Shown piece after piece: positions 16,280 to 47,354 of a stretch of 64,000 bases of DNA. A program made the translations under genes and the position numbers. Origin of the DNA: Reclinomonas americana ATCC 50394 (lineage: Eukaryota); assembly GCA_048213135.1 (NCBI GenBank), contig PS015009.1:372001-436000 (forward strand), given 5' to 3'. Below the pieces are notes generated by a model, which was given only the letters and a program-made list of their open reading frames with translations, was not told where the DNA came from and did not search any database. Each line of letters starts with the position of its first letter. The first letter of the stretch is position 1.

Positions 16280-16358
16280 CTGTTGTTTACTTTTTTCTGC
16301 GGATACCGGATTTTATGTTCCCCGCAAAGATGCGGAATTTGACTGATTGACGGCTATA

Positions 16359-37568: not shown

Positions 37569-37583
37569 GTTGCAAACTTAGTG

Positions 37584-37752
37584 TTTTCACAGAGGACAGC
37601 GGATTTTTTTGGGCATGCCCCGGTTTGAACTACACCCTCATTGTGGTCATGTTGAGGAAACGAAGCATCTATTAGTTTTTAAAGGAGAGCCCTCCTTCGT
37701 CGGGATGACCAAAGCCGTCAAACAGGTGTACTCCCGTGTAACTCTGTGAAAA
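37584..37752. repeat. Nested palindromic (REP/MITE-like) elements
   Basis: Outer pair TTTTCACAGAG (37584-37594) / CTCTGTGAAAA (37742-37752). Inner GGTCATGTTGAGGAAACGAAGCATCT ... AGAGCCCTCCTTCGTCGGGATGACC (37645-37710). Confidence 0.6.
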
Positions 37753-41743: not shown

Positions 41744-41772
41744 AAAAAAGGGGCGCTTCGGCGCCCTTTTTT
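41744..41772 (+). terminator. Intrinsic terminator after the TonB-dependent receptor
   Basis: AAAAAAGGGGCGC-TTCG-GCGCCCTTTTTT. Confidence 0.85.
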
Positions 41773-42011
41773 AATTACGAATTATGAATGACTAATTACG
41801 AATGTTATAATTCAAACTCATCTTTAGTTTACATTAATATTAAAAATATATAAATATATACGCCTTACTATCCCCATTTTTTAGTTTTAGCTTTTGAATT
41901 TTTAATTTTTTATGGACAATATGTTCAAAAAGACACCCACCCACTCCAAAAAATCACATTATATTTGTCCATCAACGATTCGCCTGCTATACAAATTAAA
42001 CCTGTTTGTAT

Positions 42012-43334
42012 ATGTCAATGAGCCGCAGACTCGCTATTTTACCTTTCCTGCTTTTACTGGCAGTGGTTATTGTATCCGTTGTATTTCCCACCACTTCTTC
42101 CGGCACCGGTGCTGGTGCTGAGATTAATGGCGCCGACACTGCCTGGATGCTGACTGCTACTGCCCTGGTACTGATCATGACGCCCGGACTGGCTTTTTTC
42201 TATGGCGGTATGGTCAACAAAAAGAATGTGATCAGCACCATGCTGCAGAGCTTCATCAGCATGGCGGTTATTACCATACTGTGGGTGGTGGTTGGATTCA
42301 GTTTTGCCTTCGGCGATTCCATTGGCGGCGTAATAGGCAACCCTTCCAGTTTTTTCATGATGAAGGGACTGCTGAACGGTAAACCCTGGCAACTGGCACC
42401 TACCATTCCGCTGATGTTGTTTGCCCTGTACCAGCTGAAGTTCGCCATTATAACACCGGCGCTTATTACCGGTGCCTTTGCCGAGCGCATCAGGTTCACC
42501 TCCTATATCCTGTTCATTTGCCTGTTCTGCATTTTTATTTATTGTCCGCTGGCGCATGCTACCTGGCATCCCAACGGCATCCTGTTCAAATACGGCGTAC
42601 TCGATTTTGCCGGTGGCACGGTAGTACATATGAGTGCGGGCTGGGCTGCCCTGGCGTCGGCCATCTACCTGAAGAAAAGAAATGAGCCGGTGCATTCCCC
42701 TGCACGCATTACCTATGTGATGCTGGGCACGGGCCTGCTGTGGTTTGGCTGGTTCGGTTTCAATGCCGGCTCGGCCTTCGGGGCCAACAACCTGGGTGTT
42801 ACGGCACTGGCTACCACCAGTTCCGCCTCCGCCGCCGCCGCGTTTACCTGGATCATTTTTGATGCCCTCCGCGGTCGCAAACCATCGGCCATGGGTACCT
42901 GCATAGGTGCTGTGGTGGGATTGGTAGCCATTACCCCCGCCGCGGGTTTCATCAGCATCTCTCATTCCCTTACCGTAGGCATCGTAAGCAGCATCGTGAG
43001 TAACATGATGGTAGAATGGCGCACTAAAACCGGCATCGATGATACACTGGATGTCTTCCCCTGCCATGGCGTAGGTGGCATCGTTGGTTTCCTGCTTACC
43101 GCCGTATTTGCCGATCAGCGTATTAACAGCGGCAACACAACAGGCAATGGCCTCGTCTTTGGCGAAACCCATCTTTTCGTGGTACACCTGCTGACAATGG
43201 TGGCCGTTTCGGTTTTTGTTTTTGCCGGGACCTTCCTCTTATTAAAAATAACAGACCTTATTACCCCCCTGCGTGTAAGCGATGAAGAAGAACGCGTTGG
43301 ACTGGACATCAGTCAGCACGGAGAAAAATTATAA
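42012..43334 (+). CDS. amt: Ammonium transporter
   Basis: MTPGLAFFYGG, LDFAGGTVVH, LLWFGWFGFNAGS, GLVAITPAAG, DDTLDVFPCHG. Start at 42012 or 42018. Confidence 0.96.
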   Translation: MSMSRRLAILPFLLLLAVVIVSVVFPTTSSGTGAGAEINGADTAWMLTATALVLIMTPGLAFFYGGMVNKKNVISTMLQSFISMAVITILWVVVGFSFAFGDSIGGVIGNPSSFFMMKGLLNGKPWQLAPTIPLMLFALYQLKFAIITPALITGAFAERIRFTSYILFICLFCIFIYCPLAHATWHPNGILFKYGVLDFAGGTVVHMSAGWAALASAIYLKKRNEPVHSPARITYVMLGTGLLWFGWFGFNAGSAFGANNLGVTALATTSSASAAAAFTWIIFDALRGRKPSAMGTCIGAVVGLVAITPAAGFISISHSLTVGIVSSIVSNMMVEWRTKTGIDDTLDVFPCHGVGGIVGFLLTAVFADQRINSGNTTGNGLVFGETHLFVVHLLTMVAVSVFVFAGTFLLLKITDLITPLRVSDEEERVGLDISQHGEKL

Positions 43335-43363
43335 CCGCATTTACGTTCTTCCATGAAAAACAG

Positions 43364-43389
43364 AAAGGCCCCGGTTATGGGGCCTTTTT
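43364..43389. terminator. Bidirectional terminator (amt on +, small unit A on -)
   Basis: AAAGGCCCC-GGTTAT-GGGGCCTTTTT. Confidence 0.75.
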
Positions 43390-43465
43390 AAAACTGGGTT
43401 GACTCTCCATTTTCAAACCAGCATACATTAGGTTCTCACAGGGTTTTGGATGGAATTCACTTCCG
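43364..43465 (-). ncRNA. Candidate small RNA A (about 100 nt)
   Basis: -7 element TATTTTTG (minus strand, 43476-43469), conserved upstream box, terminator at 43364-43389. Confidence 0.45.
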
Positions 43466-43468
43466 GAC

Positions 43469-43526
43469 CAAAAATAGATTCCTGCCGGGTCGTATGGTAT
43501 AGAACGGAAAGGATAACTGTTGTAGA
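43469..43526 (-). promoter_or_regulatory. Promoter A: TCTACAACAGTT-N10-TTCTATACC-N19-TATTTTTG
   Basis: The two boxes are identical to promoter B and the spacings are the same. Confidence 0.7.
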
Positions 43527-43554
43527 CAATATTCGATTGTGCGTTTGGGATATG

Positions 43555-43702
43555 AAAAAAGCCCGGGTAAAGGGCTCTTTTGCTGGTACTAACTTAACAA
43601 TTTCTAAAAACAAACAAACGCCTGGATTTCATATGGATATGGATCGTTCCGGATGGCGGTTCCGGGTTTTACCGGTTTCTTTGGATATGGATTTAATTTC
43701 TG
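43555..43702 (-). ncRNA. Candidate small RNA B (about 145 nt)
   Basis: -7 element TATCTTTG (43713-43706). Terminator AGAGCCC-TTTACCC-GGGCTTTTTT (43581-43555). Two internal TCCATATCCA copies. Confidence 0.55.
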
Positions 43703-43705
43703 ATA

Positions 43706-43763
43706 CAAAGATAAATGGTGGTTTTGCCCTGCGGTATAGAATACGGCGGCGAACTGTTGTAGA
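43706..43763 (-). promoter_or_regulatory. Promoter B: TCTACAACAGTT-N10-TTCTATACC-N19-TATCTTTG
   Basis: Direct sequence comparison with promoters A and C. Confidence 0.7.
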
Positions 43764-43783
43764 AATTCATCCATAGATGGAAT

Positions 43784-44731
43784 CTAGTTCATGGCCTGGC
43801 TGATAAAATAGATGTTCAGTCCGAGATAGACGACCAGCAATACCTGGGCGACCACAAAATCAAAGCGCTGCGCCTTCTCCACTTTATTCTTCTTCACCAG
43901 CATCAGGGAGTAGGCCGTTGCAGCCACTACCGCAAAGATGAAGAACAGCGTAAGCCCGTGCAGCGTATCCACGAGTGTAAACGTGGTGGATTCAGGCAGG
44001 GAGGAGTCGATGATGTATTTATTACCGATAACCGCGAACAGGGAACCCACACTCAGCCCGAAGCGGGAGTCCATTCCATCGGCATGGATATAGAAACAGA
44101 CGTAAGCGATGAGGAAGGCAATGTACATACCCAGGAACATTTTCCAGAACAGGCCGGCCGCGTCGCGGTGAATGCTGATCTGCACTTTGAAGTTGCTGTA
44201 TTCTGTATGGGGTTTGGCGAGGCTTTCATCACCGAAACCGGTCTCGTATTTTTTAATGCCGTTCACAATGCGGCAACTGTCGATCTGCCAGCCGCTGAGT
44301 GTAAACCGCGGATCGTAATGATTGCCCACCGTATCTTCCTTAAAAACAAGTGAACGGGAATCGTACTGGGAATTCTCTATCGACAAACGCAGCTTCTGCC
44401 TGTCGAACGGAAAATTCCCTATCCGCCATGAATCTTTCATCACGCACTGCAGTTTCATCTGCATATATACTTCTTCTTTGGAACTGTCGGCAACAGCAAA
44501 GGACATGGTCACCGTTTTGGCCTGGGGTATCTCCAGGTTATGCAGGAAATCGAAAGCCCGGTTCTTGTATTTTAACCAGAGCCAGAAGTTGACGGAATAT
44601 TCTTTCTGTTTAAAGTCGATATCGTGAATACTGGTGATATAGATCCCTACCTTAACGGTATCTGGCCTGGATTCCTGCGCCCTGGCGGCAATGGCACAGC
44701 AGAGCATAAGGAAGAAGAATATTTTTCGCAT
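43784..44731 (-). CDS. Prokaryotic pentameric ligand-gated ion channel (Pro-loop / Cys-loop family) homologue
   Basis: Signal peptide, VKVGIYITSIHDID..Y.V.FWL beta1-2, Pro-loop FPFDRQ, SGWQID, pre-M1 Arg (SIHRD), four TM helices with M2 SRFGLSVGSLFA and M2-M3 loop SLPESTTFTLVD. Start MRKIFF at 44731. Confidence 0.85.
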   Translation of the reverse strand: MRKIFFFLMLCCAIAARAQESRPDTVKVGIYITSIHDIDFKQKEYSVNFWLWLKYKNRAFDFLHNLEIPQAKTVTMSFAVADSSKEEVYMQMKLQCVMKDSWRIGNFPFDRQKLRLSIENSQYDSRSLVFKEDTVGNHYDPRFTLSGWQIDSCRIVNGIKKYETGFGDESLAKPHTEYSNFKVQISIHRDAAGLFWKMFLGMYIAFLIAYVCFYIHADGMDSRFGLSVGSLFAVIGNKYIIDSSLPESTTFTLVDTLHGLTLFFIFAVVAATAYSLMLVKKNKVEKAQRFDFVVAQVLLVVYLGLNIYFISQAMN

Positions 44732-44811
44732 GGGGAGGTTATTACCTGAAAGATAAAAAATATTCCGGTTTTGCCGGGGCAGGCATGATGGGTAACTATG
44801 ATTAGGGGTAT

Positions 44812-44930
44812 AAAAAAAGCCCCAGCGGGGCCTTTCAAAGGACTGATAAGATTTTAAGGTTTCCAATCAGTACGGTTGCGATTTCATAGGTAGATGGACT
44901 TTATCACGGGGTATAGGATATTGATTACAG
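44812..44930 (-). ncRNA. Candidate small RNA C or terminated leader (about 115 nt)
   Basis: -7 element TATCTTTG (44941-44934). Terminator GGCCCC-GCT-GGGGCTTTTTTT (44835-44812). Shares a 16/19-nt block with unit B. Confidence 0.5.
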
Positions 44931-44933
44931 GGT

Positions 44934-44991
44934 CAAAGATATTACCGTTACATATTTGTTTATGTAGAATATGAAGCCAAAGACCTGTAGT
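44934..44991 (-). promoter_or_regulatory. Promoter C: ACTACAGGTCTT-N10-TTCTACATA-N19-TATCTTTG
   Basis: CTACA, TT, TTCTA and TAnnTTTG fall at the same positions as in promoters A and B. Confidence 0.6.
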
Positions 44992-45137
44992 TTTTTTTTG
45001 ACAAAAATTACGAGTGGTGAATTGTTATTGATACTATACCCATTCGTAATTCGTAATTGATCATTCTTAATTAAAAAGAGGGATTCCCGTTACTGAGAAC
45101 CCCTCTTTCGTTTACAAACTTTTATTTGATAGCAGAC

Positions 45138-47354
45138 TTACCTCGCTCCCGGCGGGCAATGCGCTTTCAGGAAAGTCGTATACAATGTACTCAGGTGTTT
45201 GGATGTACCCGGGCCTTCAGAAATATTATGTGTACGGTTAGGATAAGGCATGTACTGGAATTGCTTGTTGTATTTGATCAGTTCATTCACCAGTACTTCC
45301 GCGTTGGAAAAATGAACGTTATCATCGCCTGTACCATGTATATACAGCAGGTTTCCTTTAAGGTCTTTGGCATAGGTTACCGGTGACCCTTTAATAAAAT
45401 CTTCTTTGTTTTCCTGTGGCAGTCCCATGTAGCGTTCCTGGTAAATATTATCATAGAACAACTGGTTGGCCACCGCCGCGATCGCGATGCCTGTTTTGAA
45501 TAGTTCGGGATAGCGGAACAACAGGTTGAGTGTTGAAGAACCGCCGCCGCTCCATCCCCATACAGCCGTACGGTCGCGGTCGAGATAAGGATTTTTGTCG
45601 AGCAGGTTTTTAAAACCCGTAGCCATGTCTTCAATATTGATCGTACCTATCTTCCGGTAAATGGCTTTGCGCCAGGCAGCGCCTTTAAGCATAGGCGTAC
45701 CGCGGTTATCGATGGCTACCTGTACATAGCCGTCGGCACTCATATCACCATCGTATAAAAAGTTATCGTGGTTACCATAACTATCAAGTACGGTAGCCGC
45801 CGCGGGTTCGCCGTAGACATATAACACCACCGGGTATTTTTTGGAAGGATCAAAGTTTTTCGGCTTGTTGATCCACGCATCGAGGGTAATGTTATTCCCG
45901 GTCGCGATCTGCAGGTATTCCACATTGATATTATTATCGGGCTTTACCATACCTGCAATGGCTTTGGAAGGATTGATGGGTTTGCCATCGGGCAGGCTGA
46001 TCCATTCCCTTACCGGCGGAACATTATAACTCGAGAAATTATGCACCGCGAATTTTCCGTTGGGAGAAATATTATAATCGTGTGTTCCTTTCAGATCACC
46101 GGCGGTTACCAGTTCGGGATCGTCTTTTCCTGACTGGCCAATCTGCTTTACTTTGTCGAGCAGTGAGCCTTTGCCCAGTTTTACCCGGTACAGGTACATC
46201 TGTGTGGCATTGCCGGGCGATGCGCTGAAGTAAATATAATTGTTCGCTTCATCCACGCATTTGATCTGCCCGATATCGTAATTGCCTTTCGTAAGCAGGG
46301 TCTGCGTTCTGCCATCGCGGCTGATCTTGTAGATATGCCTCCACCCGTCTTTTTCGCTTACCCAAATGAATTCCTGTCCGCCATTGATCCAGGTAAAGCC
46401 ACCGGGTTCGCCAAAAATATCGGCAGAGTTCAGGTCAACCCAGGCCTCGTCATTCTCCGCGTAAAAAGTACGGCTGCTGCCATCGTTCGCATTGCAGTAC
46501 TTCAGTTTGCTTTCCTGCTGTTTCCTGTCGAGTTGCTGTACAATGAGTTCATTGTAACTTACCCATTCCATGCGGGGAAGATAATGCTGCTGCGGGTCGC
46601 CTTCAATATCCATCCAGCGGACGTACCCGTTGCTGAGGTCGGCCACACCTATACGGGCCGGCGAAGGAGATTCTCCTACTTTGGGATATTCCACCGGTAT
46701 CACTCTTGAATAAATGGAATCGGTAGTGTTGAGCATGTAATAGTCGCGGATACGCGTGGCATCTACCTGCCAGAAAGCGATCCTGCTGCCATCGGGACTC
46801 CAGCGGAAACCATCGCGGCAACCAAACTCTTCTTCATAGGCCCAGTCAAATGTACCATTGATCATCTTGCGGGTACCGTCGCGGGTGAGTTTGGTAACAC
46901 GTCCGCTGGCCAGGTCTTCCCAGAACAGGTTGTGCTCACTTACATAAGCCAGCTTTTTACCATCCGGCGAAAATTTGGCAAACATCAGCGACTGTGCGGG
47001 CAGGCCTTTACCTGCCTGTACCAGTTTATTGCTGGCCAGGTCGAGTATCCAGTAATCACCACGGGTGTTGTACCGCCATACTTTAGCGGTATTGGTGAAG
47101 AGCAATACTTTGGTATTGTCTTTATAAAAAGAATAAGACTGCAATGGCATAGGCTTCGTTTGCCCGGGCAGTATCAACTGGTCCTTGCGCACAAGTATCC
47201 GTTCTGCTTCATTCCTGGGATCGATCTCAATGATATTACCATCCTTTACCCGCGTATAGGCATTACCACTGGCCGTCCACTTGATGTTTTGCGCCATAGC
47301 GGCATGGGTCACCAGTAAAAGCAGCAGCCACAGTCCTTTAGTTCTCGAAATCAT
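45138..47354 (-). CDS. S9B dipeptidyl-peptidase IV family protein
   Basis: DWAYEEEF, GWSGGG nucleophile elbow, HGTGDDNVH, YPNRTH. Signal peptide from MISRTK at 47354. Confidence 0.95.
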   Translation of the reverse strand: MISRTKGLWLLLLLVTHAAMAQNIKWTASGNAYTRVKDGNIIEIDPRNEAERILVRKDQLILPGQTKPMPLQSYSFYKDNTKVLLFTNTAKVWRYNTRGDYWILDLASNKLVQAGKGLPAQSLMFAKFSPDGKKLAYVSEHNLFWEDLASGRVTKLTRDGTRKMINGTFDWAYEEEFGCRDGFRWSPDGSRIAFWQVDATRIRDYYMLNTTDSIYSRVIPVEYPKVGESPSPARIGVADLSNGYVRWMDIEGDPQQHYLPRMEWVSYNELIVQQLDRKQQESKLKYCNANDGSSRTFYAENDEAWVDLNSADIFGEPGGFTWINGGQEFIWVSEKDGWRHIYKISRDGRTQTLLTKGNYDIGQIKCVDEANNYIYFSASPGNATQMYLYRVKLGKGSLLDKVKQIGQSGKDDPELVTAGDLKGTHDYNISPNGKFAVHNFSSYNVPPVREWISLPDGKPINPSKAIAGMVKPDNNINVEYLQIATGNNITLDAWINKPKNFDPSKKYPVVLYVYGEPAAATVLDSYGNHDNFLYDGDMSADGYVQVAIDNRGTPMLKGAAWRKAIYRKIGTINIEDMATGFKNLLDKNPYLDRDRTAVWGWSGGGSSTLNLLFRYPELFKTGIAIAAVANQLFYDNIYQERYMGLPQENKEDFIKGSPVTYAKDLKGNLLYIHGTGDDNVHFSNAEVLVNELIKYNKQFQYMPYPNRTHNISEGPGTSKHLSTLYTTFLKAHCPPGAR

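Follow-up and report, generated by a model that had tools for sequence, protein, structure and literature searches.

A family of short terminated RNA genes under a tandem-site promoter in Ferruginibacter-group bacteria and its possible role as decoys of a FopS-like antisense RNA family

Background

Two described systems stand close to the subject of this work, a set of three short predicted transcription units (A, B and C) on the minus strand of a 64,000-nucleotide (nt) stretch of DNA, hereafter the window (contig PS015009.1, positions 372,001 to 436,000 of the forward strand). One is the Gac/Rsm system, whose regulator GacA has been assigned the 18-bp site TGTAAG-N6-CTTACA (PMC4950607). The other comprises FopS/GibS, multicopy small RNAs (sRNAs) of Bacteroides thetaiotaomicron collected in the Rfam family RF04319 (PMC11697453, PMC7366714); the FopS RNAs inhibit translation of mRNAs by base-pairing in the vicinity of start codons (PMC11697453) and are antagonised by the protein RbpB (PMC11697453, PMC7366714). 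Bacteroidota have been described as lacking classical RNA chaperones (PMC11697453). The word 'sponge' is absent from PMC11697453; in passages of a 2026 review (PMC13750123) it was not found either, and neither of the two RNA families reported below is described there.

A first-pass annotation, made from the letters of the window alone, had regarded the three units as a co-regulated set of sRNA or micropeptide genes, driven through a direct-repeat activator site and flanking a ligand-gated channel gene. In this work we describe the family to which the units belong and a second, multicopy G-rich RNA family, whose complementarity to the units had gone unnoticed in the first pass and offers the main clue to function, and we propose a candidate regulatory circuit in which the units would serve as inducible decoys.

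Results

Promoters, terminators and coding capacity of units A, B and C

Units A, B and C share the geometry CTACA-N18-CTAYA-N21-TAnnTTTG followed by a terminator: a second CTACA or CTATA stands 23 bp after the distal CTACA and the TAnnTTTG element 21 bases past the second box (coordinates in Table 1). The CTAYA-N18-CTAYA pair occurs three times on the two strands of the window, in these units each time, and the full promoter pattern with up to two mismatches also has three matches, where 100 dinucleotide shuffles average 0.00 (0/100). The three equal promoters reported in the first pass are thus exact and correctly placed, and a hairpin with a T run follows each of them. For the PM2 promoter motif, the published text gives elements at -10 and -30.

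The terminator of unit A was detected by the terminator scan and is common to the convergent amt gene, and that of unit C is present in both the minimum free energy (MFE) and the centroid fold. The hairpin of unit B was detected locally, with a plus-strand twin (43560-43576) in the terminator scan; it is absent from the MFE structure of the whole RNA B, in which other pairings compete with it. Unit C holds no open reading frame (ORF) beyond the six-residue MKSQPY, and units B and A hold just one frame each, of 12 and 17 codons; none of these is convincing, as had been remarked before. Nor does any Rfam family reach its gathering score in the window, in agreement with the earlier failure to recognise a named RNA; an E-value scan of 43200-45200 gave 10 sub-threshold matches at chance level. 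A strain about 94% alike, represented by contigs from RNA libraries, retains all three units, and the changes among those listed lie in spacers, loop and flanks, the boxes and stems being free of changes in the part that was listed.

The unit family in related genomes

At 90% clustering, the TrmD protein of the window is grouped with proteins of which the named ones are from Ferruginibacter. Exact promoter patterns gave results near the control level in relatives: 11 of 301 family genomes against 8 in the control, with one free-standing homologue (L118) among the yield, and with other patterns 5 of 401 phylum genomes against 3, 3 of 301 against 2, and 0 of 5. Such patterns are too strict, and the family was recovered by profile models only.

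A BLAST search with L118 in 61 relatives retrieved L176, L178, L180, L184 and L187 through terminator similarity alone, and all five carry the box at the same spacing (17 instead of 18 in one of them). Model R1, a sequence profile built from nine units, matched 34 of 101 genomes of one genus at E<=1e-3 (4 of them training genomes), the genus including a named Ferruginibacter genome (L058). R1 is clade-biased, being weak in five other genera (best E 0.015); outside its genus L334 and L339 are unit-like by inspection. When 40 further regions had been added, a promoter-plus-terminator scan gave 75 unique promoters (80 rows before removal of same-promoter duplicates), and a terminator was detected for 60. 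Besides the window and L084, the result comprises 56 units of 59-235 nt (median about 122) in 26 Ferruginibacter-group genomes, with tandem arrays of two to four units at L202, L209, L231, L235, L239 and L246; the promoters left over drive genes for receiver proteins or extracytoplasmic function (ECF) sigma factors, or else RNAs of greater length. The L084 units were left out of the counts, as were terminator-less units, except that window unit A was added by hand to the 59-unit sets of the motif and pairing tests. A third model, R3, matched 86 of 141 family and 42 of 141 phylum genomes at E<=0.05; since many of these matches are weak, its top loci alone were used.

Box and spacing are kept in relatives, which upholds the first-pass view of a paralogous, co-regulated and unannotated sRNA set with an activator site, of predicted binding, in place of the -33 element. 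Judged by their sequence, units A, B and C are members of a family of short non-coding RNA genes that is so far uncatalogued and has one activator-type promoter in common; a literature search, covering the main texts of mostly open-access papers, returned no description of these units.

A metagenome scan produced 36 matches, three of which (one sequence) are unit arrays, while several are box-bearing gene promoters and many are chance-like. In that one sequence, locus L084, three promoter-RNA-terminator units follow one another in tandem immediately after the genes of a histidine kinase and a response regulator. Its triplet (L084:971-1600) has the same promoter and has TTCTATACCGCAGG in common with window unit B, together with different C/U repeats (ACCCTTT, ACCTCTT), and may have a partner RNA of its own. 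Versions of the AUCC-rich RNA longer than 200 nt, with many repeats, were seen at L205, L212, L215, L227, L339, L413 and L420.

The activator site and its candidate regulator

In the 60 promoters with the 18/21 spacing, the distal CTACA is preceded by a left half T(A/C)G at -11 to -9, whose three positions are kept in 50, 55 and 48 cases, and the left half reads GTAG in 14. Taken together, the halves of the distal site make up an 18-bp palindrome, TGTAG-N8-CTACA, though an imperfect one; in the window the site looks like a pure direct repeat because the left halves are degenerate there.

The box loci contain 29 receiver-type ORFs, of which 18 encode a LuxR/GerE domain and a single one a LytTR domain. 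LuxR-type helix-turn-helix (HTH) domains are encoded in 17 of 203 box loci (three being one sequence), in 0 of 110 control loci and in 0 of 68 loci of the G-rich RNAs described below. The best NCBIfam match of all four regulators scanned was UvrY/SirA/GacA (NF007018; 137-181 bits, below the cut-off of 280), and one cluster mate of the L084 regulator is named UvrY by its source. The HTH enrichment and the best match together point to a UvrY/GacA-like protein as the probable activator, with predicted binding to the box. CsrA (PF02599) was found in 0 of 5 unit-bearing genomes by a search whose control matched in 3 of 14.

The tandem TGTAG-N8-CTACA box was also observed before paralogous NarL/UvrY-type and receiver-only genes (L348, L351, L352, L354, L394, L163), a position that suggests an autoregulated cascade across Bacteroidota.

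Sequence and folding of the unit RNAs

The predicted RNAs are A/C-rich and G-poor, and abound in AUCC and YY(A/G/U)UGAAA. Compared with shuffled sequences, ATCC was counted 147 times versus 51 and TATCC 77 versus 11.5 (58 units), CAATATCC 13 versus 0.4 and YYDTGAAA 53 versus 5.8 (59 units); GGA is not enriched (27 versus 31.3 in 59 units), and GGAT is present in 2 of 58. The ATCC motifs are mostly single-stranded, with a mean unpaired probability of 0.78 versus 0.62. Unit bodies align poorly, the folding z-scores are -0.9 to -2.0, and we claim no conserved internal structure.

A family of G-rich partner RNAs

Two chance matches of the family scan (L121, L126) are short G-rich RNAs starting with UUUUCAUAGG. 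Model R2, built from seven G-rich RNAs of which one is of the dominant seed type, gave 7-14 matches per genome in five of five genomes of the genus and 5-16 in five of five other Chitinophagaceae, including Terrimonas, Flavisolibacter, Agriterribacter and Flavihumibacter. Each G-rich RNA is about 60 nt long and consists of a near-invariant 22-nt single-stranded 5' seed plus a terminator, with at least three seed types; in 30 copies listed, the identical 22-nt seed GGUUUUUCAUAGGAUAUUGGAU was found 22 times, a second type five times and variants three times. In a phylum sample, the seed pattern is present in 9 of 13 genomes of the family and in a single one of the 188 others. Its reverse complement, ATCCAATATCCTATGAAAAACC, joins both motifs that are repeated in the units, and the two families co-occur in relatives.

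One of the chance matches, L126, aligns with FopS RF04319 over the full model at 35.1 bits, below the 56-bit cut-off; the best RF04319 score in five genomes is 33.3 bits, and the dominant types I and II have no Rfam match. The invariant-seed family of predicted ~60-nt G-rich RNAs is uncatalogued and a finding in its own right; a literature search, covering the main texts of mostly open-access papers, found it not described.

A divergent, back-to-back pair made up of a G-rich seed RNA and a terminated C-rich unit, with about 200 bp between them, was seen at L411:156-560. A contig of a viral collection (L418:301-322) contains the exact 22-nt seed.

Predicted pairing between units and seeds

The predicted duplex with the dominant seed has a median of -18.9 kcal/mol in the 59 units and of -10.8 kcal/mol in 937 start-codon regions of the same loci, 59% of the former and 2.5% of the latter lying at or below -18 (Mann-Whitney p 2.5e-29). 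None of 200 shuffled seeds attained the unit median, and 43 of the 59 units beat 95 of 100 shuffles of their own sequence with the type I seed. Unselected pre-terminator stretches reached -18 in 2 of 100 cases, one of which is unit C. The window offers the cleanest test, because its units had been picked in ignorance of the seed: in a both-strand 40-nt scan of the 64 kb the unit sites rank 1, 5, 7, 8 and 17, and the best sites for the type I and type II seeds lie in RNAs C and A (Table 1). Terminated units found with a promoter-only model (L349, L350, L357, L366) score -17 to -23, and box-driven regulator mRNAs -8 to -13.5.

Two other minus-strand sites of the window are strongly seed-complementary, 16280-16320 (-23.2) in a gene leader and 37570-37610 (-22.0) upstream of a promoter; both may be targets.

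As to target genes, PRK12513-like ECF sigma genes were found in six box loci and in no control locus, and of the 937 start regions, the 17 that match the seed best include four from these genes. In locus L421 the leader driven by the box has AUAUCC ... CUUAUGAAA spanning the start codon. PRK12513-like ECF sigma genes were noted in tandem pairs at L256, L229 and L421, accompanied there by box-like sites and by leaders rich in AUCC.

Gene neighbourhood and feature coordinates

The neighbours of the units are an ammonium transporter gene, a gene of the pentameric channel family and a dipeptidyl peptidase gene. As the channel gene lacks a terminator of its own, unit B also lies within its 3' untranslated region. 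No box was found near the channel-gene homologues (0 of 80 loci) and no unit behind peptidase homologues at the 30 best loci; the channel gene and the other neighbours are incidental to the units, and the connection with the channel gene drawn in the first pass is not supported.

Elsewhere in the window, a short repeated element of the ATTACGAATT type lies beside terminators at both ends of the locus (41765-41805 and 45040-45075) and is matched by many unrelated contigs, and the segment 53326-61923 holds a gene of the PorP/SprF family and, after it, a tandem pair of genes for M12B metallopeptidases that have type IX secretion tails.

Table 1 Predicted features of the three units, with the adjoining channel gene and examples of the G-rich family (window coordinates unless a locus is given)
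Feature	Position	Strand	Remarks
Unit C distal activator site (predicted)	44986..45003	-	degenerate left half TGTCA, N8, CTACA; CTACA starts at 44990
Unit C proximal half-site CTACA	44963..44967	-	-33 position
Unit C -7 element TATCTTTG	44934..44941	-	TAnnTTTG ends at 44934
Predicted RNA C	44810..44928	-	about 120 nt, start inferred; terminator 44835-44812
RNA C seed-complementary sites (two)	44873..44924	-	44904-44873 (-23.8 kcal/mol), strongest type I seed site anywhere in the window; 44924-44899 (-15.9 kcal/mol)
Unit B distal activator site (predicted)	43758..43775	-	TATGG, N8, CTACA; CTACA starts at 43762
Unit B proximal half-site CTATA	43735..43739	-	
Unit B -7 element TATCTTTG	43706..43713	-	TAnnTTTG ends at 43706
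Predicted RNA B	43553..43700	-	about 150 nt; terminator 43581-43555
RNA B seed-complementary sites	43646-43623; 43695-43673	-	-21.4 and -19.0 kcal/mol
Unit A distal activator site (predicted)	43521..43538	-	left half TCG variant, N8, CTACA; CTACA starts at 43525
Unit A proximal half-site CTATA	43498..43502	-	
Unit A -7 element TATTTTTG	43469..43476	-	TAnnTTTG ends at 43469
Predicted RNA A	43357..43463	-	about 107 nt; terminator 43387-43364
RNA A seed-complementary site	43452-43430	-	-21.1 kcal/mol with the type I seed; -23.3 with the type II seed, for which no site in the window is stronger
Pentameric ligand-gated channel family gene (PF02931)	43784..44731	-	3' end reads into unit B
G-rich family examples	L287:1506-1570		also L289-L310, L313-L327

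Discussion

We propose, with a probability of roughly 0.55, that the units are inducible decoy (sponge) RNAs which titrate the FopS-like antisense family, with a Gac-like regulator on top. A signal would lead to phosphorylation of the UvrY/GacA-like regulator, which would bind the tandem site, formed by the distal imperfect palindrome and the proximal half-site 23 bp closer, at -33, and would activate the primary-sigma -7 promoter. The non-coding decoy RNAs made from it (105-150 nt, mostly single-stranded) would copy the start-codon region of target mRNAs (AUCCAAUAUCC ... CUAUGAAAA), pair with the 5' seed of the constitutive multicopy ~60-nt antisense RNAs and titrate them. Target mRNAs would then be freed for translation, including that of an ECF sigma gene which the same regulator would also induce. 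The net effect would be a coherent feed-forward loop with the logic of Gac/Rsm, the antisense RNA family standing in the place of the CsrA protein. As to the direction of control, we infer by analogy that the G-rich RNAs are repressors, since FopS represses near start codons (PMC11697453). The wider idea, of an RNA-only switch of the Gac/Rsm type in Chitinophagaceae, in which a target-mimic family titrates an invariant-seed antisense family and an ECF sigma factor is the feed-forward output, is advanced tentatively.

Several observations weigh against the decoy proposal. The proximal site is a half-site only, without a conserved left half. The RNA-library runs (4 of 11 listed) gave contigs with DNA carry-over, from which expression is not demonstrable; a 109-nt contig of run X3 lying inside unit B (43570-43675) is not counted as expression because the libraries carry DNA. 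The motif counts are partly circular, as AUCC motifs were contained in R1, which picked the units. With the type I seed 16 of the 59 units fail to beat 95 of 100 of their own shuffles, the tandem neighbours, on which R1 exerts no bias, are mixed (-11.8 to -22.6), and the L084 triplet, under the same promoter, is not complementary to any of the seeds (p 13-86 of 100). In three genomes, near-matches without gaps to the complement of the seed hardly exceed the control (20 versus 14), and these 20 include three decoy-like units, three start codons of long ORFs and about eight chance-looking cases. Compensatory change between the partners could not show, because the seed is invariant. No G-rich copy lies within the 64-kb window, so its partner RNA is inferred from relatives, and G-rich RNAs of the FopS-like subtype stand under the same box (L121, L126, L347), which misfits a clean on/off split. 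Finally, the complementarity would also arise if a protein and an antisense RNA read one leader motif.

This last point leads to an alternative in which the units are protein sponges, their AUCC repeats titrating an RNA-binding protein (e.g. RRM/Rbp) that represses AUCC leaders, as a direct counterpart of Csr/Rsm with a different motif, and with seed complementarity as a by-product. Such a role would suit the repeated and mostly unpaired short motif, the Gac-like promoter, the repeated C/U motifs of the L084 units, which lack seed complementarity, the 59-nt unit divergent from an Rbp-like gene with an RNA-recognition motif (RRM) (L240:1101-1700) and the leaders, for example L415, in which the motif is far from the start codon. 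We nevertheless regard it as unlikely, in view of a match that spans both halves of the 22-nt seed and so exceeds a protein site of 4-6 nt, and of the mirroring of three seed subtypes in the units, where besides the enrichment of CAATATCC given above CCG-TAC was counted 6 times versus 1.3 and CTTATCC 6 versus 0.6; moreover, no candidate protein gene co-locates with the units, and CsrA is absent from the five genomes. The polarity could also be the reverse, the C-rich RNAs being regulated targets, or leaders orphaned by the loss of regulon genes such as the ECF sigma paralogues, that are cleared by the G-rich RNAs and have no decoy function. The 5' ends of units do look like leaders of ECF sigma genes that the same promoter drives (L198, L203, L421), the sequences diverge fast and fixed gene neighbours are missing; relics, however, would hardly have retained strong terminators, more than one site on each RNA and amplification in tandem across many genomes, nor all three units in the ~94% strain, and we consider this reading quite improbable.

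The two remaining alternatives go back to the first-pass annotation. LytTR-regulated promoters are characterised by direct repeats, of imperfect match, to which a LytTR regulator from a nearby gene binds, and the window box had been likened to them: in the window the two right half-sites alone are well kept and form a direct repeat, and one LytTR gene adjoins a unit (L255). Yet the distal site is an inverted repeat, if an imperfect one, whose left half is kept across the 60 promoters and reads GTAG in 14 of them, the GerE-type candidates outnumber the LytTR one 18 to 1 among the 29, and the box stands directly upstream of NarL-type genes (L348, L352, L354), so that we give little credence to a LytTR-domain protein or another direct-repeat binder as activator in place of the UvrY/GacA-like one. 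A set of micropeptide genes, in which the AUG-AAA motifs would start short peptides (MKS..., MES...), is hardly credible. Each window unit does contain an ATG in a plausible Bacteroidota context, and A precedes 44 of the 90 TGAAA motifs, but T (17), C (16) or G (13) precedes the other 46, 10 of the 59 units have no ATG, and the frames are unrelated in position and length, many running into the terminator; no conserved ORF was found across the units.

With regard to known systems, the proposed switch has the layout of Gac/Rsm, with its GacA-activated RNAs RsmX/Y/Z (PMC4950607), and the chemistry of an sRNA sponge (PMC12205990). NarL-family regulators whose best match, below the cut-off, is UvrY/SirA/GacA are encoded near the boxes; the upstream palindrome is 18 bp long with TGTA...TACA ends in both cases (TGTAAG-N6-CTTACA there, TGTAG-N8-CTACA here); and the RNAs are redundant, of about 100-170 nt, with a repeated single-stranded motif, an intrinsic terminator and copy-number dosage. 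On the other hand, the motif of the units is AUCC, the reverse complement of GGAU, their genomes are without CsrA (0/5), their probable ligand is an RNA and not a protein, and they have a second, tandem half-site at -33 of a Bacteroidota -7 promoter. Because GGA is not enriched and CsrA is missing in five of five genomes, the units are not Rsm RNAs in spite of their Rsm-like architecture; membership in the CsrB/RsmY/RsmZ families was rejected on these grounds and for the lack of a match at Rfam gathering score.

The G-rich partner resembles FopS in being multicopy, in its single-stranded 5' seed followed by a terminator and in its complementarity to start regions, and one subtype (L126, L269, L270) matches RF04319 over the full model with 31-35 bits. 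It differs in that all scores stay below 56 bits and that the dominant invariant-seed types have no FopS match, and the window units are of opposite polarity, as target mimics. RF04319 was accordingly rejected both for the G-rich family by Rfam score (best 35.1 bits versus the 56 required) and for the window units, which do not match it and carry the complementary sequence, not a U/G-rich seed. In the manner of AgvB as well as 3'ETS-leuZ, sponges which pair with a regulatory sRNA and not with an mRNA (PMC12205990), the units are predicted to pair stably with the seed of an sRNA that co-occurs with them in relatives. Those sponges are single RNAs that act together with Hfq, whereas here one family would face another from a two-component promoter of its own.

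Conclusions

For UvrY/GacA-like regulators that are kept without CsrA, the finding offers a candidate binding site, a candidate regulon made up of paralogues of the regulator itself, proteins with nothing but a receiver and an ECF sigma factor, and, in addition, a pair of RNA families that interlock. It also bears on how multicopy FopS-like repressors, which are hard to delete, might be switched off as a block, and a decoy RNA would be a possible tool for knocking down a whole sRNA family in Chitinophagaceae with one RNA. If the proposal is true, the CsrA node would have been replaced by a multicopy sRNA, and the AUCC motif of the decoys would mirror the motif of the Rsm RNAs.

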